Source of the DNA: Bacteroidetes bacterium GWE2_42_24
Lineage (GTDB): Bacteria; Bacteroidota; Bacteroidia; Bacteroidales; TTA-H9
NCBI GenBank assembly: GCA_001768515.1
Contig: MEOA01000015.1
Span: 6,226-70,225 of the forward strand
DNA: 64,000 nucleotides
Reading direction: 5' to 3'
The position numbers and the translations under genes are program-made. The notes under the pieces were generated by a model. That model had not been told where the DNA came from, did not search any database, and worked only from the letters and a program-made list of their open reading frames with translations. Below are positions 25,081-64,000 of the stretch, one piece after another; the first letter of the stretch is position 1, and the number at the start of each line of letters is the position of its first letter.

Positions 25081-26283
25081 TTATTTCGATTCCTGAGCTT
25101 TAAAGGCATCCATGTCGAATGTGAGACTGAACCGAAGGGTATTGTCGAGAGGGTTACGTTGGTCGGTACTCACTAGGTATGAGAAATCAAGTCCAAACAC
25201 GTTGTAGCGGAGGCCGGCACCGAAGGTGAAAAACTTGCGATCACCCTTATCTGCACTTTCGTGATGATAACCACCTCTGATGGCAAACTGTTTGTTGTAC
25301 CAATATTCAACGCCCACAGCCCAGGTGATTTCTTTCAACTCTTCGCTGAAACCATCAGGAGCATCATAGAATGATTGTAACATCCCCTGAAAAACAGAAA
25401 CATTATCATTCATACCTCTCAGGATAGGCGTTTCATTGTTAACATCCACGCCGGTATCATAAATCGGGGGTGTAGGGACGAGCAGTTTGGTAAACTCAAC
25501 CGTGCCTGTAATCGTATTAAAGTTATCGATATTATAGGTGAAGGCAGGGCCAATACGTAGCTGGGTGGGGATAAAGTCTTTTTCTATATCACTGGTATAG
25601 CTGATTTTTGAACCAATGTTGGCAATGTTAACCCCCAACGCAAACTGACCCGACTGTCCGGAGGAGAAGTCGATAGGTTTACGGTAATAGATTGAAACAT
25701 CGGCAGCAACAGAAGTCCCGGCGTGGGTTTCTACATTTCCGGATCCGACTGACTGGCCCTGAGTCAGGTTTGAATAGATAAATTTTGCCGAAACAGCTCC
25801 TGACAGATGATCGGTAAATAAACGTGAGTAGGTCCCCTGAATGGTGAACTCGTTGGGTTTGTATATGCCTTTATCCGCTCCTGAGGCATCGGTAAATTGA
25901 ATTTCGCCCAGCGAAAAATATCTGAGGGAACCGGCAATTGTCTGACGTTTGTCTAGTTTGTAGTAACCCGTAAGATAACCGAGGCCGATGTCATCAACGA
26001 GTTCTTTTAGCCAGGGGCTATATGAGACTGAAAATCCCATTTGTTTGTCAATGAAAGCGTATTTTGCAGGATTCCAATGCATGGAGTTTACATCAGGGTC
26101 GGTAGCTACACCGGTTTCTCCCATTGAGCCACCACGGGCATCAGGTGCAATCAGCATAAAAGGCACGGCAGTTGTGATGGCCAGGGGACGATATACATTC
26201 GATTCCTGCGCCCGGACCATCTGGCTGTTCAGGGAAAGACCGGCTATCAGAGCCAATGAAAAATATTTCAGTTTGAAACGCAT
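25081..26283 (-). CDS. porV: T9SS outer-membrane channel/shuttle protein PorV (LptO)
   Basis: Signal peptide, then the hallmark ITTAVPFMLIAPDARGGSMGETGVATDPDVNSMHWNPAKYAF. 400 aa beta-barrel adjacent to porU. Confidence 0.9.
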   Translation of the reverse strand: MRFKLKYFSLALIAGLSLNSQMVRAQESNVYRPLAITTAVPFMLIAPDARGGSMGETGVATDPDVNSMHWNPAKYAFIDKQMGFSVSYSPWLKELVDDIGLGYLTGYYKLDKRQTIAGSLRYFSLGEIQFTDASGADKGIYKPNEFTIQGTYSRLFTDHLSGAVSAKFIYSNLTQGQSVGSGNVETHAGTSVAADVSIYYRKPIDFSSGQSGQFALGVNIANIGSKISYTSDIEKDFIPTQLRIGPAFTYNIDNFNTITGTVEFTKLLVPTPPIYDTGVDVNNETPILRGMNDNVSVFQGMLQSFYDAPDGFSEELKEITWAVGVEYWYNKQFAIRGGYHHESADKGDRKFFTFGAGLRYNVFGLDFSYLVSTDQRNPLDNTLRFSLTFDMDAFKAQESK

Positions 26284-48797: not shown

Positions 48798-50510
48798 CTA
48801 ATGTCCTTCCAATGAGCTATCCCATTCAAAGCCTATCCCATTGACGGCGGCAGTATCCTCCTCAAAGAGTTTGCGGTCGCCGGTAAGGTAATAGGTAATG
48901 CCCTGGATTTCCAGTTTCACTTTGTCACCTATTGGTTCAATTTTCATGGAAGCGGGAATCATGTTAATTGATTCGCTTTTCCCTTCTGAACTGCTTATAT
49001 TGTTTTTAACGCCGGTAAACGTCTCGCCATTCTCTGTGAATTCAAAGAAGTGCCTGGTTATCGTGCCTGAGTCTTGTTTGGTGGTAAATTCTACTGATGT
49101 AAGGTAATCCCGGATGGTCTGCCGGTTGGTCATGTCAATTGAACTTATTTGTTGAGGTTCGATATGGAGAATGCCTGATTCTTCCTGAGCAATGTAAACA
49201 AGACCACCCGCAAAATAGCCAATCAAAGCCAGTAGACTCACTTTTTTAAGATACCATATAAAGTCGATCTTTTCCATTCCCATAACGGCTACGCCGGCTG
49301 CCGACCCAATGATCAGGATGCTGCCACCCGTCCCGGCACAATAGGCCAGAAACTCCCAAAAGTAATGGTCTGCAGGAAAACTGCCGGCATACATTCCCAT
49401 AGCACCTGCTACCAACGGGACGTTATCTACGATGCTTGACAATATGCCAATTATAAGATTGATGACATAGAGGTTACCTACATTGTCATTCAGGTAGCCC
49501 GATAACAGGGTCAGGTGCCCGGCGACCTGAAGTGCAGCCACTGCAATTAAAATACCGAGGAAGAACAGGATACTTGGAACATCAATTTTCCGTAAAACCC
49601 CAACGATCGTGAGATGAGCTTTATCTTCATCGTTTTTGGATTTGTGAAGCAATTCAGTGGTCAGCCACAATATCCCGAGTCCAAATAACATGCCCAGATA
49701 AGGGGGAAGGTGGGTAACCGTCTTGAATACAGGAACGAAGAGAAGTAGTCCAATACCCAGGAAGAACAGAAAGTTTCTTTCTAAAGTAGTTGATTGAGTT
49801 CCATGTCCATGCGCCTTATCCGCTTTTGGTCTTGAAACAGTTCCTTTCATGGTAAAGGAAAGGATTGCCAGAGGAACCAGCATACTTACCAGACTGGGGA
49901 GGAAGGTTTTAAGCATAATATTTACAGTGGTCACATGGCCTCCAATCCAAAGCATGATGGTGGTCACATCACCTATCGGGCTCCATGCTCCACCGGCATT
50001 GGCAGCAACGATAACCATCCCGGCATAAAACCAGCGGTCGTGACGGTCAGCAATAAGTTTACGCAACAGTGCAACCATTACAATCGACGTGGTGAGGTTG
50101 TCGAGCGCGGCTGACATGAAAAAGGTGATTATACTGGTCACCCAAAGCAGCTTGACCTTTTTGGTGGTCTTTATCTTGTCGGTGATGATTCTGAAGCCTT
50201 CATGTGAATCAACCAGTTCAACGATAGTCATTGCTCCCATCAGGAAGAAAATAATTTCGCTGACCTCACCCAGATGTTCAAGTAAGGCGTGGTGAGAAAG
50301 CCAATCGGCAAAAGTGCCGCCCGGGACTTCAGAAAGGTATTTTGTAAATGCTTCAGTGCTGACGAGTAATTCTTTTCCGCCAAACATGAGTAAGACCCAA
50401 AGAACCACCGCCAATAACAGAGCAGAGGCTGATTTGTTGACTTTGAGCGGGTGCTCCAGCGCGATAGCTGTATAGCCTAAAATAAAAACCAGGATCATCA
50501 GGTAGAACAT
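48798..50510 (-). CDS. NhaD/ArsB-superfamily Na+/H+ antiporter with a ~125-aa soluble C-terminal extension
   Basis: N-terminus MFYLMILVFILGYTAIALEHPLKVNKSA.. and ~12 TM helices over ~440 aa. A hydrophilic tail follows (..EPQQISSIDMTNRQ...GFEWDSSLEGH). Confidence 0.8.
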   Translation of the reverse strand: MFYLMILVFILGYTAIALEHPLKVNKSASALLLAVVLWVLLMFGGKELLVSTEAFTKYLSEVPGGTFADWLSHHALLEHLGEVSEIIFFLMGAMTIVELVDSHEGFRIITDKIKTTKKVKLLWVTSIITFFMSAALDNLTTSIVMVALLRKLIADRHDRWFYAGMVIVAANAGGAWSPIGDVTTIMLWIGGHVTTVNIMLKTFLPSLVSMLVPLAILSFTMKGTVSRPKADKAHGHGTQSTTLERNFLFFLGIGLLLFVPVFKTVTHLPPYLGMLFGLGILWLTTELLHKSKNDEDKAHLTIVGVLRKIDVPSILFFLGILIAVAALQVAGHLTLLSGYLNDNVGNLYVINLIIGILSSIVDNVPLVAGAMGMYAGSFPADHYFWEFLAYCAGTGGSILIIGSAAGVAVMGMEKIDFIWYLKKVSLLALIGYFAGGLVYIAQEESGILHIEPQQISSIDMTNRQTIRDYLTSVEFTTKQDSGTITRHFFEFTENGETFTGVKNNISSSEGKSESINMIPASMKIEPIGDKVKLEIQGITYYLTGDRKLFEEDTAAVNGIGFEWDSSLEGH

Positions 50511-51050: not shown

Positions 51051-51145
51051 TCGCCAAATAAAAGCCGGTTGATGTTCGCGCCGGTAATTTTCATAATTTA
51101 GTGCCCGCTTAGGGTATGGTAACTCAAGCTAATACTTACGGTCAA

Positions 51146-52459
51146 ATGAAGTTTTCGAAAATATCTTTTAAAGCGGCGGTAGTTTGGTTCATTACTGCAT
51201 TGAGCCTGACACAGATCCAAGCTCAACCTGTCATCAAACTCATCAGCGATACTGCCTGTAGTCCCGATACCGTACAAATTTCCATTACCGGCACCAGGGT
51301 AATTGGTGTTAACAGCTTTGAGCTTTTGGTTCATTTTGATGATTCGCGTATGCGGTTCGATAGTGTCTTTTATGCTATGAATTTTCTGGATAGACATTTC
51401 CAGACCGATTTGATATCGTCTTCTGTCGTTAAGCTTACCTGGGATTCTGTCAGAGCCTTAACCATAGGCTCCGAGGCTGTCATGTTTAAACTTCAGTTTA
51501 CGGTGCTTAACCCGGGTAATCCTGCTATCATTTGGGAAGGTACTTCGGCACTTCGTGATGCGGAACAGCAACTGGTTATTTCCGAATTTGTTGATGCCAA
51601 TGTTTTGATTAATTCCAAATATATCAGGTACACCCTGACCCAGATCATGGAGGGATGTGTCAAGGAGAAAAAGGGACGCTATTCTGTCTCGGTAACTTAC
51701 GGATCGCCTCCATTTATATACGACTGGCATGGTGGATTTCTGAATCCTGGTGTTGATACTATTGTGCTGGGACTAAAGGGTGGCCCAAACAAGCTGACGA
51801 TATACGACAGCAAGTGGTGCCGGTTTGATACTACTTTTCAGGTGAAGGTAAAGCCTGCTCCGGCGATCAGGTTATCAACCGAGGAGGCTGTACCTTATGT
51901 GATTGTTCAGAAACCAGATGTTCAATTTTATTCAAACATCGATTCCATTAATCTGATCGATAATTCGATACCCAACTGGCAATGGGATTTCGGCGAACCA
52001 GATAGTTCGAGGTCGGTTGAAACAGATCCCTTGCATACATTCAAGACAGCATTTACTGTTCTGGAGGCTGGTACGACGAGTTATATGATTAAACTCTGGG
52101 CCATCAGCAACGATGGGTGCGACACAAGTGTTTATAAAGAAGTTCAGATAGATAAACCCGAGCCGGAAGTGTTTAATGTATTTACTCCCAATGGTGACGG
52201 ACAAAATGAGTTGTTTACCATTCATGGAAGTAAAAAGGCAGATCTCGAGGAATGGCCTCTCAGTGATTTTTATGATCGGATGGAATTACTGGTGTACGAC
52301 CGTAACGGAAGGAAGGTCTATGAATCGACAGATTATCAAAACGATTGGGATGGCGGCGGTCATGCCGATGGTACTTACTTCTATGTTTTGAAATGTTATG
52401 GCCGATTTGGCGATGAAACCTACCAGGGGTCGCTGATGATTCTTACCGGCGGCAAGTAG
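51146..52459 (+). CDS. Secreted protein with T9SS type B C-terminal sorting domain (gliding-motility-associated CTD)
   Basis: Start at ATG 51146 with a signal peptide. It has a PKD-like segment (WQWDFGEPDS). The C-terminus VFNVFTPNGDGQNELFTIHG...YDRNGRKVYES..WDG...DGTYFYVL matches the type B CTD. Confidence 0.85.
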   Translation: MKFSKISFKAAVVWFITALSLTQIQAQPVIKLISDTACSPDTVQISITGTRVIGVNSFELLVHFDDSRMRFDSVFYAMNFLDRHFQTDLISSSVVKLTWDSVRALTIGSEAVMFKLQFTVLNPGNPAIIWEGTSALRDAEQQLVISEFVDANVLINSKYIRYTLTQIMEGCVKEKKGRYSVSVTYGSPPFIYDWHGGFLNPGVDTIVLGLKGGPNKLTIYDSKWCRFDTTFQVKVKPAPAIRLSTEEAVPYVIVQKPDVQFYSNIDSINLIDNSIPNWQWDFGEPDSSRSVETDPLHTFKTAFTVLEAGTTSYMIKLWAISNDGCDTSVYKEVQIDKPEPEVFNVFTPNGDGQNELFTIHGSKKADLEEWPLSDFYDRMELLVYDRNGRKVYESTDYQNDWDGGGHADGTYFYVLKCYGRFGDETYQGSLMILTGGK

Positions 52460-52574: not shown

Positions 52575-53594
52575 ATGCCAAACGAACCATTGCCAGTCAT
52601 CACTTTTCTTAAGGCATCTGCCAATAATCCTTTAGTGGATGTACGGGCGCCGCAGGAGTTTCTGCGGGGACACATCCCGGGGGCAATCAATATTCCAATT
52701 TTCAGCGATGAACAACGGGCCAGGGTTGGCACCGAATATGCCCGTAAAGGGCAACAAGCTGCCATTTTGTTAGGATTGGATTTAATTGGACCTGAGTTGA
52801 CTCTTCGATGCCGGCAACTGATGAAACATGCTCCTGCCGGATCAATTGTCAGTCTTTACTGCTGGCGGGGTGGTCTGCGGAGCGCTGCCATGGAATGGTT
52901 GTTTAACCTGATTGGGTATTCCACCAATCGACTGCAAGGGGGTTACAAGGCTTTCAGACTTGAAGTTCAGGGATCATTCGGACTTGCATATAACCTCAGG
53001 GTGATAGCAGGCCCTACAGGTTCAGGTAAGACAGAGATACTCCGGCATATGAGTGTGCTTGGTGCTCAGGTGCTTGATCTTGAAGCGCTGGCCAACCATC
53101 GTGGTTCTGTTTTCGGTGGTTTGGGTATGGAACCCCAGCCTGGTACCGAGCATTTCGAGAACCTGCTTTATTACAGGTTATCAACCTTTAACAGAGATCA
53201 GGTTATTTGGGTTGAAGATGAGAGCCTTTCCATCGGCAACTGTTTTATTCCAAGAGAATTCTATAATCAGATGCAACAGGTCCGAACCTATGTGACAGGT
53301 GCTTCAAGGACTGAAAGGGTTGAAAGACTGGTCGGGATGTACGGATCTATAGACATAATCCTGTTGAAAGAGGCACTGGTTAAAATTGGGAAAAGGCTTG
53401 GTGGTGATAAGCTAAAGATCGCGCTTGAGGCATTGGCTGTTGGTGATCTGCATGAGGTTGCGCGGCTTTCGCTTGATTATTACGATAAAACCTATGCGGG
53501 AGGCTTATCCGCACGAAATCCAGAAAGTGTTGTTTATATCACACCTTCAGCTCAGGATACTGCTGCGATAGCCCGTCACCTCCTAGCGCTGTAA
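52575..53594 (+). CDS. mnmH: tRNA 2-selenouridine synthase
   Basis: Rhodanese domain with active-site loop YCWRGGLRS, followed by P-loop AGPTGSGKTE. 339 aa. Confidence 0.85.
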   Translation: MPNEPLPVITFLKASANNPLVDVRAPQEFLRGHIPGAINIPIFSDEQRARVGTEYARKGQQAAILLGLDLIGPELTLRCRQLMKHAPAGSIVSLYCWRGGLRSAAMEWLFNLIGYSTNRLQGGYKAFRLEVQGSFGLAYNLRVIAGPTGSGKTEILRHMSVLGAQVLDLEALANHRGSVFGGLGMEPQPGTEHFENLLYYRLSTFNRDQVIWVEDESLSIGNCFIPREFYNQMQQVRTYVTGASRTERVERLVGMYGSIDIILLKEALVKIGKRLGGDKLKIALEALAVGDLHEVARLSLDYYDKTYAGGLSARNPESVVYITPSAQDTAAIARHLLAL

Positions 53595-57687: not shown

Positions 57688-58140
57688 TCAGCAGCCAATT
57701 CCCATTTGCTGAAGTAATTCAACGGCATCGTATACACATGGGATACATACTGCGGCAGTAAGCCCCTGATCGGCTACCGCTTCGCGGCCTTCCTGTGTGT
57801 TAAGGTTTTGCCCTAAAAGTTCACTGCAGGAGGTGGCGTGGTGTTTTTCAGAGAACTGCAGGGTGATCTGTTGTATTAGTTCCCGTGCCTTCGCTTTGCG
57901 GGTCGCTTCATCGGTAACAGTCGTACTGCAATGTAGTCCAATGACCATATAGGCACCCGTTAAAGCACCACAGGTTAGTTGTAGTCTGCCCATACCACCT
58001 CCGAAACCAGAAGCGATGTTGATGGCTTGCCGGTTGTCTTCTGAAATAAGTTCTTCAAATGTACCCAATACCGATTGGGCACAGTTATATCCTGATTTTA
58101 ACATTTGAAGGGCATTCGAAGCTCTGTCGTGATTTATCAT
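57688..58140 (-). CDS. C_GCAxxG_C_C family (putative redox-active) protein
   Basis: 150 aa with YNCAQSVL, LTCGALTGAYMVIG and the later Cys residues (..TSCSELL.., ..CIPCVYD..) in the family order. Confidence 0.7.
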   Translation of the reverse strand: MINHDRASNALQMLKSGYNCAQSVLGTFEELISEDNRQAINIASGFGGGMGRLQLTCGALTGAYMVIGLHCSTTVTDEATRKAKARELIQQITLQFSEKHHATSCSELLGQNLNTQEGREAVADQGLTAAVCIPCVYDAVELLQQMGIGC

Positions 58141-58152
58141 GGGTGGTTTCTA

Positions 58153-59445
58153 TTATTTTGTATTAGTAGTTTTGTTTCCCAGCCAATCATTCAGGGTGTC
58201 CAGAACTTTCTTTTTTGGTTCACTGCTCAATGTCCCGATTCGTGTTCCATGACAGCCTCCCGGTGCAATGATGCGAAGGGCATTGGTCGCCGTCGACGGC
58301 AGGGCGGCTGAGGCACACCAAGGGTCGTTGCCCCCGTATATATAGATGATGTTGTTACCTTCCAGCGCAATGAAATCACGCACACGCTGAAGTGTGAGGG
58401 GATTAAACTTGTAATGCGGTCCTTTGGGGGCCATGATACTGTTGCTGATGTAACCGTTTTTGATGGAGAGCAAATCACCTACGCCGGTGGTGTCGTAACC
58501 ATAATAACCAATTTCAGTGTAGGCCTGATAGAAGAAAGCCTGTGTTCCATCCATCCCCGGGTGGGTGAAGTTGTCAAGGCCAACCGTGGCTGTGAGATGC
58601 ATGTATAGCTCACGGGGTGTGGCTGATGCTCCTGGTATGTTTTCAGGCTTATTGCACCATTGCCAGTAACTGAACGGGTATTCCAGTACCATATAATCCA
58701 ACGTACTGTCAGGACTCATTGCCCATGTGTATTGACGCTTCCCGGCCTGATTCTTTAACAGGTCAAGCACCGCCGAACGTTGCTTCAATACATTCCGCTG
58801 AAAAGTGGTGATCTTACTACGGGTGATCGAATCGCCCACCTGTTTCAGGAACCAGATTTCGCGGGGATCTTCCTGAGCGATATTGTAGGGCGCTACGTAT
58901 GCTACTGTAGCATCGGCATCGTTGGGGTAAAACGTGCGGTGGTAAACGGCTGTCTGGCCGCCTTTGCTGATGCCGGTGGTGATCCATTTGCCCTTATAGA
59001 TGGTTTTCAGCAATTCGATAACATGATGATGGTCAGCGGCTGCATTTTCAACGGTAAGGTAATCCCATGGCTGCCCTTCGGGTTTGGATCCTGAAAAGTA
59101 TCTGTGTTCTACAACCAGTTGATTACTTTGGAGTATGTTTGCCAGCTCTTCCTCAAAAAAGGTATTGTTGGCGTAATCGGCCGAATATCCTTCAGTGGTC
59201 ATCACCATGGGTTTGCTGAAACCCCGATGCGAAAGGAAAGCCCGTTGTGTGAAAGTCCCTTTCTCAGGATGACGATGATCGAGGGGCTGGGTGATTGTGA
59301 GGATGTATGATTCGGTGAAACCGGGAGCAGCAGCTTTGGTTTCAACCTTTACACCGGGTAGGGCGTTCAGTTGCTCCTGCAACGTCTCACTGATAACGGT
59401 GAGTGCGCTTGAGAGGAATAGCATAAGAAGAAGTCTGGCTTTCAT
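58153..59445 (-). CDS. Secreted alpha/beta-hydrolase serine peptidase, S28/S37-like (Pro-directed / tripeptidyl aminopeptidase families)
   Basis: Signal peptide MKARLLLMLFLSSALTVIS. N-terminal block ITQPLDHRHPEKGTFTQRAFLSH..PMVMTTEGY and nucleophile elbow GISKGG. Confidence 0.55.
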   Translation of the reverse strand: MKARLLLMLFLSSALTVISETLQEQLNALPGVKVETKAAAPGFTESYILTITQPLDHRHPEKGTFTQRAFLSHRGFSKPMVMTTEGYSADYANNTFFEEELANILQSNQLVVEHRYFSGSKPEGQPWDYLTVENAAADHHHVIELLKTIYKGKWITTGISKGGQTAVYHRTFYPNDADATVAYVAPYNIAQEDPREIWFLKQVGDSITRSKITTFQRNVLKQRSAVLDLLKNQAGKRQYTWAMSPDSTLDYMVLEYPFSYWQWCNKPENIPGASATPRELYMHLTATVGLDNFTHPGMDGTQAFFYQAYTEIGYYGYDTTGVGDLLSIKNGYISNSIMAPKGPHYKFNPLTLQRVRDFIALEGNNIIYIYGGNDPWCASAALPSTATNALRIIAPGGCHGTRIGTLSSEPKKKVLDTLNDWLGNKTTNTK

Positions 59446-59481: not shown

Positions 59482-60450
59482 CTATCCGAACAGATGCCCT
59501 GCTTGCAGCAGGGAGACATTCAGGGTTACCGACATGGTTATAATATCAGAACCGGACGAGTTATCCGTTTCAGTAATGGCGACCAACGATTGGTATCCAA
59601 ACAGACTCCTGATGATGAATGTGGCTTCCCGGGGCTGTTTAAGGGCGGCCAGGGAAGCGACTCTTGTACACGATGCTGCTGCGCCGGGTGAGTGGTTAAT
59701 GGTTCCCTGAGGGGTTGCAGTGGCTTGTATGGGAAAGGCGTTATCTGTTCCGGTGAAAACAACGGCTGATGGTATCGCCTCTTGCATTGTAAAGGGGTTT
59801 ATCTGCTTCAGATTGATTGCGGCTGCCCGCAATATCCATTGGCCGTAATCCTCCATCCTTCGCAGCATCGTCTTTTCATGGCTTAACGTGATACCCAAGG
59901 TGTCAGCTGCTGTAAGAAGATAAAATTCACCGGCAAAAACAATGTCAAATTTCACCAGCCCTATACCCGGAACACCTGTCTCCTGACCAGTAGCCACAGT
60001 TTTAACCGGGATGTTCATGAGTTTACATTCGAAATCGTAACCTGTCAATGGAGTAACCATACATTGAATCGAAGCGGCTGGTGTGTTGTATGAGTAGCTG
60101 CCTGCATTGGTTGCGCCGCTTTGCAGATAACGCCTGACAGATAGAGCTGCCATACCATCCAATGATAATCCTGTGTTCAGTCCGTAAGATTCATTTATAA
60201 GATCAATGATCCTGCTGTTATCTCCACTTCTTTTGGTGAAAAGCATCGTTTGATCTGGGCTTAATTGAAGTTTGTCCAGTCGGTCTTTTGCTAGGTCTGC
60301 CAACCGTTCCGTTGCGATTCCCATCTCTGTCTGATCTGCTTTAACTAAATCAGGCAGGGTCGTGATGATTACGGGCTGCCCGGCTACAGTGAAGCTATAC
60401 ACTTCCGGAAGTGTAAGCGAAGATTGGTAACCGGGATTAGAAGTATACAT
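59482..60450 (-). CDS. Divergent proline racemase / hydroxyproline epimerase-fold protein lacking both catalytic cysteines
   Basis: Family blocks are recognisable. SFTVAGQPVIITTLPDL aligns to IDSHTGGEPTRxVxGGxPDL, and VPGIGLVKFDIVFAGEFYLL to VPGxGxVxxDIAxGGxFFxxV. HSPGAAASCTRVASLAA replaces DRSPCGTGTSAKLAxLxA, and GLSLDGMAAL replaces GYLxMCGHGTIG. No signal peptide. Confidence 0.55.
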   Translation of the reverse strand: MYTSNPGYQSSLTLPEVYSFTVAGQPVIITTLPDLVKADQTEMGIATERLADLAKDRLDKLQLSPDQTMLFTKRSGDNSRIIDLINESYGLNTGLSLDGMAALSVRRYLQSGATNAGSYSYNTPAASIQCMVTPLTGYDFECKLMNIPVKTVATGQETGVPGIGLVKFDIVFAGEFYLLTAADTLGITLSHEKTMLRRMEDYGQWILRAAAINLKQINPFTMQEAIPSAVVFTGTDNAFPIQATATPQGTINHSPGAAASCTRVASLAALKQPREATFIIRSLFGYQSLVAITETDNSSGSDIITMSVTLNVSLLQAGHLFG

Positions 60451-60508: not shown

Positions 60509-60516
60509 CAAAGGTA
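60509..60516 (-). promoter_or_regulatory. -7 promoter box TACCTTTG upstream of the racemase-fold gene
   Basis: The minus strand has an exact TAnnTTTG match 58 nt upstream of the ATG at 60450. Confidence 0.35.
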
Positions 60517-60833
60517 AAAAAGGTGATTCAATTGAACCATGTTAAAATAAACTGATTTCTTATTTCGCTCAGCTATCTGTTGCCTTTCGCTGTCTGCCGA
60601 TGAAACGCTTCTTTGCTAAAACAGTTAAAAATATCTTTGGCCTTTTGTCCTGACGAATCACGGCATCGGATTGATTATTCTCCGGCAATGGCAAATAACA
60701 CCAGCAATTCAGCATAGCAATCTCTTCGCTGGTCTGTGTATTGTTTAGCCGATGTATATCTGAGACTATTAACCCCGTAGGATATGGGCTTTTCTCACGT
60801 CATTGAAGTAAAAGCTCCTCATGTAACACCCTA

Positions 60834-63200
60834 TTAGCAATCGCTGTGTTCCGTCCTTCGGATGATTTCATCCTGAAGGTCTTCACCCAGATCGTTGAAG
60901 TAATCGCTGTAGCCTGCAACACGAACAATAAGATCCCGGTATTTCTCCGGATGTTTTTGTGCATCACGCAGTGTATCGGCATTTACTACGTTAAACTGAA
61001 TGTGGTGCCCGTCCATCCGAAAGTAGCTGCGGATGAGTGCCGTTAGTTTGCCGTAGCTTTCGTTGTCGTCGAAGAATGAGGGAGTGAACTTCTGGTTTAG
61101 CAAGGTCCCTCCGGTTTTGATGTGATCAATCTTTGCCGCCGATTTTAAAACGGCAGTTGGACCACAATGGTCGGCTCCCTGTACAGGACTGATTCCTTCT
61201 GATAGTGGGATGCCTGACAACCTTCCGTCAGGGGTAGCTCCTGTTACCTGACCGAAATAGATATGGCAGGTTGTGGGCAGCATGTTGATGCGGTAAGTAG
61301 CGCCACGTGGTGATTGCCTTCCATCCACAGCCTTGAAGAAGAGATTGAATATCCCGATGGCATGCCTGTCGGCGGTGTCATCGTCGTTACCCCATTTCGG
61401 AGTATTGAAAACCAACTCTTTTCTGAGTTCCTGATAATCCTGAAAATTACTGTCAAGCGCCTGGATCATTCCTTTCATCGTAATTGTCTGCTGATCATAA
61501 ACATGTTGTTTAATTGCGGTCAGGCTGTCGGTCAGACTACCTAATCCAACACCCTGGATGTAGGAACTGTTGTAGCGGGTGCCTCCGGCATTGTAATCAC
61601 ACCCGTTGGCTATGCAGTCGTCGATAAGCAGCGAAAGAAAAGGAACCGGCAGGTTAATGGCAAAGAGCTTTTCAATCACATTGTTGCCTCTGATCTTGAT
61701 GTCAACGAAATAGTTAACCTGTTTCTCAAAGGCCTCCATCATAAGGTTAAACGTACTGAATTTATCCGCCTCACCTGTGTGAAGGCCAACCTGTCTTCCG
61801 GTGCGGGGATCAAAGCCGTCATGGAGGGTTAACTCAAAAATTTTTGTCAGGTTAAAATAACCGGTCAGTATGTAGGCTTCGGTACCAAAGGCACCACTTT
61901 CAACACAACCCGAAGCCCCGCCGTTACGGGCATCTTCAGGTGTTTTTCCTTGTCGCATCAGTTCCTGAACGATGGCATCGGTGTTGAAGATGCTGGGTTG
62001 CCCAAATCCTGTCCTGATAATATTGAGTGTTTTGTGGATGAAACGATCCGGGTTTTTTTTGCTTACCTGTATCATGCTGCTTGGCTGTAGCAGCCTCATT
62101 TCCTGAATTACTTCGAGCAACAGGTAGGTCATTTCGTTTACAGCGTCAGAGCCGTCCTCTTTTACACCACCTAAGTTGATGAGTGAGAAATCGGTATAGG
62201 TGTTGCTCTCGAGTGCAGTGACGCCAATCTTGGGCGGCGCCGGATGGTTATTGAACTTAATCCAGAAACAATGAAGCAGTTCACGGGCCTCTTCTTTCGT
62301 GAGGCGCCCTGATGCAAGGTCTTGCTGATAAAAGGGGAGGAGGTGCTGATCGAGTCGTCCCGGATTAAATGAGTCCCAGGGGTTGAGTTCGGTGATCACC
62401 CCCAGATGAATGAACCAGTAATGCTGAAGGGCTTCATGAAGGGTTTCGGGTTTATGGGCTGGAACTCGTCGGCAGACTGCTGCCATCTGCTCAAGTTCTT
62501 TCTTTCGCTTATCGTCAGTTTCTGCTTGTGCCAGCTGCACCAATTCTTCGGCATGCCTTTCGCTGTAACGAATCAAAGCACTGGCAGCGAGTTCCATGCC
62601 TGCGAGTTCTTCCTGCTTTTCAAAGGCCTGCGGGTCGTTGAAAAAGTCGAGCGAAGCACGACTTTTTTCGATGTCGTCGATGATGTCGAGCAGCCCCTTG
62701 CTCCACATCTTTTTTCCAAGTACCGTGTGCCCGGGTGCCCGTTGCTCCTGAAATTCGGTGAAGATACCTGCATCGTAGGCTGCCTTCCATTCGCTGGTCA
62801 TGTTTCCCATCATTTTATCACGATGTGTCTTGCCCTGCCAGAACGGGATAATGACGTCGCGATATGCCTCACGTACGGCCTCATCTGATTTAAAGGAGAC
62901 TTTCGCGCGATTGTGCAATACGTCGAGGTCTTCGAGCGAGTGAAGTGTCACTTCGGGGTAAGTGGAGGTTGCTTTTGGTGCAGGTCCCCGTTCTCCGACA
63001 ATCAACTCTCCCGGATTGATGCAGATTGTTTTGTTGTTGAGCAGGTACATGAGGCAGCGGCCCCTTCTGACGGGAGCCGAAACTTCCCGCGCTGCATCAC
63101 TTTGGTGAAAACGGGTAACTATTAACGCTCTTTCCGCGCTGATACAATTGATGGCGTCCAGACTCTGACGGCGGAGTTTATTTACACGTTCGGTGATCAT
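60834..63200 (-). CDS. hypD: Glycyl radical enzyme, PFL2/dehydratase class; probable trans-4-hydroxy-L-proline dehydratase
   Basis: 788 aa. Glycyl radical motif IVRVAGYSDYF (G763) and Cys loop GGASGCVES (C432, E434). H158, D276, S332, F338, Y448 and T643 sit at a constant -2 offset from the HypD active-site residues I recall. Confidence 0.65.
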   Translation of the reverse strand: MITERVNKLRRQSLDAINCISAERALIVTRFHQSDAAREVSAPVRRGRCLMYLLNNKTICINPGELIVGERGPAPKATSTYPEVTLHSLEDLDVLHNRAKVSFKSDEAVREAYRDVIIPFWQGKTHRDKMMGNMTSEWKAAYDAGIFTEFQEQRAPGHTVLGKKMWSKGLLDIIDDIEKSRASLDFFNDPQAFEKQEELAGMELAASALIRYSERHAEELVQLAQAETDDKRKKELEQMAAVCRRVPAHKPETLHEALQHYWFIHLGVITELNPWDSFNPGRLDQHLLPFYQQDLASGRLTKEEARELLHCFWIKFNNHPAPPKIGVTALESNTYTDFSLINLGGVKEDGSDAVNEMTYLLLEVIQEMRLLQPSSMIQVSKKNPDRFIHKTLNIIRTGFGQPSIFNTDAIVQELMRQGKTPEDARNGGASGCVESGAFGTEAYILTGYFNLTKIFELTLHDGFDPRTGRQVGLHTGEADKFSTFNLMMEAFEKQVNYFVDIKIRGNNVIEKLFAINLPVPFLSLLIDDCIANGCDYNAGGTRYNSSYIQGVGLGSLTDSLTAIKQHVYDQQTITMKGMIQALDSNFQDYQELRKELVFNTPKWGNDDDTADRHAIGIFNLFFKAVDGRQSPRGATYRINMLPTTCHIYFGQVTGATPDGRLSGIPLSEGISPVQGADHCGPTAVLKSAAKIDHIKTGGTLLNQKFTPSFFDDNESYGKLTALIRSYFRMDGHHIQFNVVNADTLRDAQKHPEKYRDLIVRVAGYSDYFNDLGEDLQDEIIRRTEHSDC

Positions 63201-63234: not shown

Positions 63235-64000
63235 TTATCCTCCTTCCTTTACCCTGAAGCCTGCCGCTGAGAACAGGGAAAGGGCTTCACGGGTATTGGT
63301 GGTGGCTTGTTGGTTGGGTAGTTTGGGAGACGGTTGCAGCCCGAGTGCTTCGTATTTGTGTTGACCCAACCTGTGAAAAGGGAGGAAATCAACACGCTCG
63401 ACGGGCTGTCTGATGGTCTTAAGAAAATTGATTGTTTCGGTCAGCGATTTTAATCCATCGTTGACGCCTGGAATAAGCGGGATACGGATGATAAGCCTTA
63501 GCCCCGGTACATCAAGCGATACCAGATTTTTAAGGATTACATGGTTTGATTGTCCTGTTGTCTCATAATGACATTGGTCGTCAATTGATTTTATGTCGAA
63601 CAGGAGGAGGTCTGTCGTAGCTGCGACTTTTGAGAATACTTCACTGGTCGCAAAACCACTGGTGTCAACTGCTGTATTGATACCTTCTTCGTGGCACTGT
63701 TGTAGCATCTCCAGCAGAAAACCGTGTTGCATCAGCGGCTCTCCTCCCGAAAAGGTGACTCCGCCCTTGCTCTCTTCGAAATATAGCCTGTCGCGGATGA
63801 TTTCCCGCATCACTTCATCTGCCGTCATTTCTTTGCCAACAGTGCTGGCTAACCATTCTACACTGCCATCCAGTGTACGGCGTTTGTTAATGGTTCCGAT
63901 AGCCGATGTCTGGCTCTCAGGATTGTGGCACCAGAAACAACGCAACGGACAGCCTTTCAGGAAGACCGTAGTGCGTATGCCCGGGCCATCATGCACGGCG
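63235..64000 (-). CDS. Glycyl-radical enzyme activating protein (radical SAM), 5' end beyond the window
   Basis: ..HDGPGIRTTVFLKGCPLRCFWCHNPE (CX3CX2C) and SGGEPL. The first codon in the track is GTG inside a frame that stays open to the window edge. No additional Cys clusters are present. Confidence 0.85.
   Translation of the reverse strand, partial: AVHDGPGIRTTVFLKGCPLRCFWCHNPESQTSAIGTINKRRTLDGSVEWLASTVGKEMTADEVMREIIRDRLYFEESKGGVTFSGGEPLMQHGFLLEMLQQCHEEGINTAVDTSGFATSEVFSKVAATTDLLLFDIKSIDDQCHYETTGQSNHVILKNLVSLDVPGLRLIIRIPLIPGVNDGLKSLTETINFLKTIRQPVERVDFLPFHRLGQHKYEALGLQPSPKLPNQQATTNTREALSLFSAAGFRVKEGG

Follow-up and report, generated by a model that had tools for sequence, protein, structure and literature searches.

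A divergent proline-racemase-fold protein that lacks its family's catalytic residues is retained beside hypD in an uncultured Bacteroidales lineage

We analyzed a 64,000-nucleotide stretch of DNA from Bacteroidetes bacterium GWE2_42_24 (contig MEOA01000015.1, positions 6,226 to 70,225; hereafter, the window), in which an open reading frame (ORF) of 322 codons lies between the gene for the glycyl radical enzyme HypD and a gene for a secreted proline-type serine peptidase. The product of this ORF, here named PRL, belongs to the proline racemase superfamily both by sequence and by fold, yet it has none of the catalytic machinery on which the known reactions of the family depend. The gene evolves under relaxed but real purifying selection. 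The reading that we favor, to which we give about an even chance, is that PRL is a retained pseudoenzyme that acts by binding.

59482-60450, minus strand: PRL, a divergent proline-racemase-fold protein (322-aa ORF)

Family membership and catalytic positions of PRL

The PRL frame contains 0 stops, compared to 10 to 26 in the other five frames of the same stretch and a mean of 16 in shuffled sequence. In NCBI the protein is annotated only as "hypothetical protein"; its records, among them HAQ65294.1 and OFY14497.1, belong to Bacteroidetes bacterium GWE2_42_24 and to a Bacteroidales metagenome-assembled genome (MAG). Pfam PF05544 matched PRL with 49 bits (gathering score 27) and an E-value of 6e-13, over residues 120 to 309 only. 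When the profile of the nine-member PRL clade was compared with 15 canonical members in hhalign, the match had a probability of 99.7% and an E-value of 7e-26 and covered 293 columns, spanning residues 16 to 313. The AlphaFold2 model of PRL, with a mean predicted local distance difference test (pLDDT) score of 76.6 and a predicted template modeling (TM) score of 0.79, shows two pseudo-symmetric α/β domains, each with a central helix that points its N terminus at the cleft (predicted at residues 97 to 111 and 257 to 270). Foldseek matched this model over its full length to solved structures of the superfamily: the best 37 matches were all proline racemase superfamily proteins, with TM-scores of 0.61 to 0.75. 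The best of these was the dehydratase 6r76 (E 2e-18, TM 0.75), followed by Trypanosoma cruzi proline racemase, hydroxyproline (Hyp) epimerases, 3-Hyp dehydratases, and then DapF and PhzF. The assignment to the proline racemase family made in the initial annotation is thus upheld by the Pfam, hhalign, and Foldseek results alike, and the three family sequence blocks that it had pointed out are homologous in the hhalign profile alignment.

The register of the two catalytic positions was taken from five alignments, three to solved structures (PDB 6r76, 6j7c, and 7pb3), one with MAFFT, and one with hhalign. In all five, the first catalytic Cys (of MCGH; position 1) corresponds to Thr93 and the His of the same motif to Leu95, and in every alignment the second catalytic Cys (of DRSPCGTG; position 2) corresponds to Gly256. 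The two motif counterparts are as follows.

60166-60177, minus strand: N92-T93-G94-L95, degenerate counterpart of M-C-G-H (concordant alignments)
59674-59697, minus strand: N252-H253-S254-P255-G256-A257-A258-A259, counterpart of D-R-S-P-C-G-T-G (concordant alignments)

Initially, MCGH had been aligned by eye to LDGM, which made Asp98 the first catalytic residue and Asp/Gly the catalytic pair. The five concordant alignments rule out that register: LDGM, with Asp98, sits under the canonical "TIG," six residues downstream of the MCGH column. The residue at position 1 is therefore Thr93 and not Asp98, because MCGH aligns to N92-T93-G94-L95. The claim that both catalytic cysteines have been replaced consequently stands, with Gly256 as the second replacement and the first Cys indeed lost, and the Asp/Gly pair gives way to Thr/Gly, with a position 1 that varies across the clade. 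Four catalytic pairs are known in the family (PMC4364671), namely Cys/Cys, Ser/Cys (an epimerase documented in PMC4113996), Cys/Thr, and Ser/Thr, and, as had been suggested, PRL fits none of them. Real cysteines elsewhere in PRL were checked as relocated catalytic residues, among them C130 and C261, which the initial annotation had itself named as candidates that would overturn its claim, and none of them is catalytic by its alignment column. C130 occupies the column of a canonical strand Ala (Gly in clade member P0091), C142 that of a canonical Val, and C261 that of a canonical [SC] five residues past the catalytic position, where Cys is not conserved in two of the three groups of the clade described below (groups B and C).

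The residues that surround the catalytic pair have changed as well. In canonical enzymes, the ligand forms hydrogen bonds through its ring nitrogen and carboxylate with the His of MCGH and with Asp and Thr of DRSPCGTG (PMC4364671). In PRL, with the ligand-contact sites defined after Watanabe et al. 2015 (PMC4364671), these are Leu95, Asn252 (Ser in P0002 and P0003), and Ala258; the Arg of the second motif is His253, and Ser228 and Thr246 stand at the two hydrophobic sites that determine specificity, Leu221 and Trp241 in TlProR. The initial annotation had held that the genomic context strongly suggests a proline-derivative substrate. A proline-type ligand in the canonical binding mode is not expected, because the contacts are Leu95, Asn252, and Ala258, and that claim could not be maintained. 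An Asp–Arg salt bridge that stabilizes the open and closed states has been reported family-wide (PMC9309405), and this domain-closure pair is replaced in PRL by Gln62 and His253. Furthermore, the EPRGH motif carries a five-residue deletion, the His, Glu, and Arg of HTxGEPxR are Thr21, Gln25, and Ile28, and the C-terminal DPxDPxxxGF tail is missing. In the predicted model, the loop of residues 75 to 93 that bears position 1 has a pLDDT below 50 and is predicted to be disordered, and the helix of residues 257 to 270 begins directly after G256.

Scores against the NCBIfam equivalog models for ProR, HypE, and 3-Hyp dehydratase were 13 to 33 bits, compared to cutoffs of 376 to 556. Specifically, PRL scored 29.7 bits with the ProR model (cutoff 556), 25.8, 24.7, and 12.7 bits with the HypE models (cutoffs 376, 450, and 442), and 32.6 and 25.7 bits with the 3-Hyp dehydratase models (cutoffs 550 and 540). 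Of the features tested that define the racemase/epimerase subfamily or the 3-Hyp dehydratase subfamily, PRL has none.

Comparison with individual members places PRL more closely. The dehydratase 6r76, its best solved match (phmmer E 1e-7, profile E 3.5e-11, Foldseek TM 0.75), shares with PRL the two-domain fold, the VPGxGxVxxDIxFGGxFY block, and a residue other than Cys at position 2. However, the dehydratase carries MCGH, with the Cys base and the His, and DRSPTGTG, with Asp, Arg, and Thr, where PRL has NTGL and NHSPGAAA; the two proteins are only ∼19% identical, and PRL is without the EPRGH motif and the C-terminal tail. The Ser/Cys 4-hydroxyproline 2-epimerase of Agrobacterium vitis (B9K4G4; PDB 4LB0), also a structural match, shows that a hydroxyl residue can replace the Cys at position 1 (PMC4113996), and Thr or Ser stands there in the group of the clade that contains PRL. 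This epimerase, however, keeps the Cys at position 2 and the DRSPCGTG contacts, whereas PRL has Gly at position 2 and a variable position 1. The nearest Cys-free precedent is the Ser/Thr dehydratase (2014; discussed in PMC4364671), which is active with no Cys at either position; it keeps a conserved Ser base and has Thr at position 2, whereas in the PRL clade position 1 varies and position 2 is always Gly, which lacks a side chain. Some uncharacterized and otherwise canonical members also have Gly at position 2, for example P0044 (SMCGH, DRSPGGTATC). These share the Cys-to-Gly change with PRL but retain MCGH, DRSP, and the canonical length, and they are distant from it (E ∼1e-5). The P0044 contig, at only 2.2 kb, is too short for gene context.

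Conservation and selection within the PRL clade

PRL is rare. A word-indexed search of 5.8 billion proteins returned three relatives, with 90, 47, and 43% identity, only seven proteins fell below an E-value of 1e-10 when 1.84 billion representatives were searched exhaustively with HMMER, and a profile search added one further relative. Altogether there are about nine sequence clusters, all from one uncultured Bacteroidales lineage, and in GTDB a single species-level genome, the Bacteroidetes MAG SZUA-528, carries a relative. The distant superfamily representative P0008 (480 aa) has an apparent duplication of an N-terminal-domain segment and no recognizable catalytic motifs, and is possibly a misassembly or another degenerate member.

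The clade alignment comprised nine full-length members after two misannotated starts had been corrected. P0005 (243 aa) and P0006 (274 aa) look truncated at the N terminus, and decay was considered as the cause and rejected: their annotated starts are wrong, because in-frame upstream sequence encodes the missing strands. The nine proteins fall into group A (the window protein and P0001 to P0003), with [NS]HSPG at the second motif; group B (P0004 and P0005), with GRS[PA]G; and group C (P0006, P0007, and P0091), in which GEPVR and DRSPG are still present. Motif degeneration is stepwise across groups C, B, and A. Position 2 is Gly in 9/9 members. At position 1 the nine members have T, T, S, S, C, T, E, K, and E, and the helix-cap Gly94 is likewise not conserved. 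The 22 invariant residues (G24, F140, C142, Q156, G159, P161, G162, G164, L165, F172, L185, E200, D201, L207, P219, T221, F232, Q242, S254, G256, G285, and G318) cluster in the C-terminal domain, where two segments stand out.

59806-60021, minus strand: residues 144-215, the most constrained block, at the start of the C-terminal "jaw" (NIPVK...VPGIGLVKFDIVFAGEFY...helix 193-213)
59836-59862, minus strand: R197-W205 (RRMEDYGQW), a clade-specific conserved patch on helix 193-213 (clade alignment)

E200 and D201 of this patch are invariant in 9/9 members at columns that are variable in canonical enzymes. From the helical periodicity, in which M199, G203, and I206 match canonical conserved positions, the RRxEDYGxW patch is probably solvent exposed.

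PRL is the fastest-evolving gene of its neighborhood, at about five times the rate of its neighbors. Amino acid identity between the window and the corresponding locus L001 is 44% for PRL, compared to 89% for HypD, 86% for the peptidase, and 97% for ThrS; for locus L004, the values are 27, 80, 74, and 93%, respectively. Ratios of nonsynonymous to synonymous substitution rates (dN/dS) were estimated by the Nei–Gojobori method in three independent close pairs, with bootstrap 95% intervals. For the whole PRL gene, they were 0.25 (0.15 to 0.38), 0.47 (0.34 to 0.68), and 0.31 (0.22 to 0.41), with every interval below 1. These values are four to six times those of HypD and the peptidase (0.03 to 0.08). 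Residues 144 to 215, which the model predicts with a pLDDT of ∼90 and among which invariant residues cluster, gave 0.03, 0.26, and 0.19 in the three pairs. The N-terminal domain and the C-terminal strands are the least constrained parts, and in one pair the C-terminal segment reached 1.06. Canonical members dimerize through the N-terminal domain, and their C-terminal domain forms the mobile "jaw" (PMC9309405). In PRL, the dimerization domain drifts, and it is the jaw domain that stays conserved. The full-length ORF is intact in nine lineages, past synonymous saturation.

The hypD locus and its surroundings

The genes next to PRL on the same strand are given here in their order from the upstream side, together with two features of the gap between hypD and PRL.

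63235-64000, minus strand: HypD-activating radical S-adenosylmethionine enzyme (TIGR02494, 271 bits; its 5′ end lies beyond the window, and orthologues have 265 aa)
60834-63200, minus strand: hypD, trans-4-hydroxy-L-proline dehydratase, a glycyl radical enzyme (NF043068, 1211.7 bits; cutoff 1100)
60562-60833, minus strand: extra noncoding sequence of ∼270 bp directly after the hypD stop (intergenic alignment)
60509-60516, minus strand: TACCTTTG, promoter-like box, 58 nt before the PRL ATG (intergenic alignment)
58153-59445, minus strand: secreted S37/S28 (proline-type) serine peptidase (PF05576, 211 bits; PF05577, 54 bits)
57688-58140, minus strand: C_GCAxxG_C_C family protein, the last gene of the block (Pfam and NCBIfam profile matches)

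The HypD neighbor scored 988 bits against Clostridium difficile HypD (6vxc), compared to 467 for HpyG, 427 for HpzG, and 402 for HplG, so these three assignments were rejected. With the NF043068 match above its cutoff and a linkage that is fixed across loci, the HypD-like neighbor and its tight association with PRL that had been noted at the outset were borne out. HypD lies directly upstream of PRL in 11/11 loci that reach that far (L011 was excluded, its contig being too short), and the S37/S28 peptidase gene lies directly downstream in every locus whose contig reaches (12 loci in total). No locus of the lineage is without PRL. HypD identity is at least 80% inside this lineage and at most 72% outside it. 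The peptidase gene begins 36 bp downstream of PRL, and its product has a hydrophobic, signal-like stretch at the N terminus as well as an invariant GISKGG. In locus L005 (7532 to 9899), hypD is split into two ORFs (622 and 149 aa) with the glycyl radical domain separated, through a frameshift or an assembly error.

Outside the lineage, none of the three nearest outgroup loci (71 to 72% HypD identity) has a proline racemase superfamily gene beside hypD; peptidase genes of the DPP-IV/S9, DUF885, or M64 types are found there. Whether PRL arose from a canonical epimerase encoded beside hypD in sister lineages was considered, and these same three loci offered no candidate. Conversely, none of 80 outgroup loci with the peptidase (37 to 45% identity) has hypD or a proline racemase superfamily gene within 6 kb of it. 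Among the 20 scanned ORFs of at least 200 aa in the window, none was proC, a prolidase gene, or a pyrroline-5-carboxylate dehydrogenase gene. We found no report in the literature examined of a proline racemase superfamily gene linked to hypD; a 2018 survey of HypD mentions proC as the sole neighbor, in Clostridia (PMC6219649). In the outgroup hypD loci L095, L096, L097, and L098, hypD and its activase gene are flanked by DPP-IV/S9, M64, and DUF885 peptidase genes, and an AraC regulator and a fasciclin protein are also encoded there. Pairing of HypD with a proline-type peptidase seems to be recurrent in Bacteroidales, with a peptidase family that varies by lineage.

The gap between hypD and PRL measures 383 bp and consists of a proximal part of ∼110 bp, conserved across the groups, and the distal part of ∼270 bp. 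The TACCTTTG box in the proximal part is conserved as TAACTTTG in distant relatives (at the equivalent positions of L001 and L003), and it fits TAnnTTTG, the Bacteroidetes −7 promoter consensus. The box may function as a promoter. Given this conserved TAnnTTTG box, PRL and the peptidase gene may share a transcript of their own, separate from that of hypD. The extra ∼270 bp are absent from L001 and L003, where the gap is ∼113 bp, and at least partly present in the 90%-identical L011. No ORF of note was found in this segment, and the 383-bp gap gave no Rfam match to an RNA element at E-values up to 1.

The C_GCAxxG_C_C gene is present in the window, in L001 (12310 to 12762), and in L003 and is absent from L004 and L008. 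This "putative redox-active (seleno)protein" ends the block in group A and perhaps group B, and it is missing from the group C loci. Near it in the window is a gene resembling SelU (tRNA 2-selenouridine synthase; 52575 to 53594), and the C_GCAxxG_C_C gene is followed by thrS-infC-rpmI-rplT. On the other side of the block, a gene for a 433-aa CitMHS-type transporter lies divergently upstream of the activase gene in L001 (4502 to 5803) and L004 (4455 to 5756). This transporter is a candidate importer for the pathway, and its position lies past the right end of the window; a second CitMHS gene is found within the window at 48798 to 50510. Further away, the window encodes components of Type IX secretion (region 25081 to 45456, with PorV at 25081 to 26283 and PorP/SprF at 34571 to 35575), which three very large ORFs (1278, 1377, and 1426 aa) adjoin, and a CHU_C-domain protein (51116 to 52459), typical surface machinery of Bacteroidota that is unrelated to PRL.

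Possible roles of PRL

Two hallmarks of a pseudoenzyme were found in PRL, the loss of the catalytic residues of the parent family and retention under purifying selection. We infer that PRL is non-catalytic because position 1 is unconserved and position 2 has no side chain, because neither the ligand contacts nor the closure salt bridge survives, and because it evolves at a dN/dS four to six times as high as the neighboring enzymes. The two-domain fold is kept, and two-base racemization, epimerization, and 3-hydroxyproline dehydration of the known types would no longer be possible. PRL may then be an accessory gene of a lineage-specific block for the utilization of hydroxyproline peptides, in which the activase gene and hypD are followed by an apparent separate promoter, PRL, the secreted S37/S28 peptidase gene, and sometimes the gene for the C_GCAxxG_C_C protein. 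Its role would be binding, not catalysis, through the well-conserved C-terminal jaw domain, and the alignments suggest two candidate surfaces. One is the retained S-P-G helix N terminus, whose backbone amides bind the carboxylate of the substrate in canonical enzymes. The other is the RRxEDYGxW helix patch, which could contact a protein partner. Binding as the mode of action, and this placement of the functional surface, are suggested by what is still conserved. A new activity, a ligand-binding pseudoenzyme, and a regulator had all been put forward for PRL; the evidence leans toward a non-catalytic role and does not separate ligand binding from partner binding.

Several observations weigh against a non-catalytic PRL and count for the alternative that it is still an enzyme, with a new activity and non-canonical catalytic residues, to which we allow a real, if minority, chance. 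The invariant Q156, E200, D201, T221, Q242, S254, and C142 could form a new active site, Gly256 is found in all nine members, and each substitution in the pocket brings in a smaller residue (Cys to Gly, Thr to Ala, Trp/Phe to Thr/Asn, and Leu/His to Ser/Ala), which would suit an enlarged pocket and a bulkier substrate. Such an enzyme might be a one-base or base-free isomerase or dehydratase of a HypD-related metabolite, pyrroline-5-carboxylate or a Hyp isomer; or it might accept, in its Gly-opened pocket, a bulkier Hyp derivative such as an X-Hyp dipeptide from the adjacent peptidase. The wider DapF/PhzF fold hosts chemistry without Cys, and PhzF is among the fold matches of PRL. In addition, the linkage to hypD and the proline-type peptidase gene is strict, Gly at position 2 recurs in otherwise canonical, uncharacterized members such as P0044, active Cys-free members of the family are known, and Ser at position 1 supports catalysis in the Ser/Cys epimerases and Ser/Thr dehydratases (PMC4113996 and PMC4364671). 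The Thr or Ser of group A could therefore act as a base, since Ser works in these known members. Against this alternative, however, position 1 (T/S/C/E/K) and the helix-cap Gly94 are unconserved, the loop bearing position 1 is predicted to be disordered, and neither the residues that hydrogen-bond the ligand nor the salt bridge of domain closure are retained. The elevated dN/dS relative to the neighboring true enzymes would be unusual for a defined active site, and E200 and D201 probably lie at canonically variable outer-helix positions rather than in the cleft. It also seems unlikely that PRL is the founder of a cysteine-free, Gly-opened branch of the fold with a new role in the anaerobic use of hydroxyproline, be it as a cofactor-independent enzyme acting on X-Hyp dipeptides or pyrroline-5-carboxylate or as a partner that feeds or regulates HypD.

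PRL might instead be the functionless relic of a former epimerase or dehydratase gene, drifting to loss inside a block that is itself selected, which we judge quite improbable. Its rate, the highest of the neighborhood, with a dN/dS raised to 0.25 to 0.47 and a C-terminal segment at 1.06 in one pair, the stepwise loss of the canonical motifs, the rarity of the protein (nine sequence clusters), and its NCBI label of merely "hypothetical protein" would agree with such drift. Yet all three independent pairs gave whole-gene dN/dS intervals that exclude 1, residues 144 to 215 are strongly constrained (0.03 to 0.26), and a frame of ∼320 codons, in which ∼16 stops would be expected by chance, has stayed open in nine lineages since synonymous saturation. 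The apparent N-terminal truncations are annotation errors, every locus in the lineage has PRL, and the promoter-like box just upstream is conserved. Finally, PRL could be an ordinary proline racemase or 4-hydroxyproline epimerase whose catalytic cysteines were misaligned by eye, given that cysteines are present at 130, 142, and 261 and that C142 is invariant in the clade. The five alignments that put Thr93 and Gly256 in the catalytic columns, the canonical counterparts of these three cysteines (a strand Ala, a Val, and the [SC] five residues past the catalytic Cys), and equivalog scores that fall so far below their cutoffs (13 to 33 bits vs. 376 to 556) make this extremely improbable.

In all characterized members of the superfamily, position 1 is held by a residue for proton transfer and position 2 by Cys or Thr; PRL has neither. 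It has nevertheless been kept for a long time in a fixed place beside HypD and a proline-type peptidase. PRL thus seems to be an unusual, clean case of a catalytic fold stripped of its chemistry and retained in a defined metabolic locus. Its reach is limited to about nine sequence clusters in one uncultured lineage, from a handful of genomes. A catalytic PRL would widen the range of reactions known for the fold. Should PRL instead bind a ligand or a partner, as in the pseudoenzyme reading that we favor, it would be the first pseudoenzyme described for the proline racemase fold, of which we found no report in the literature examined, and would add a component to the anaerobic catabolism of hydroxyproline and collagen peptides in Bacteroidales.

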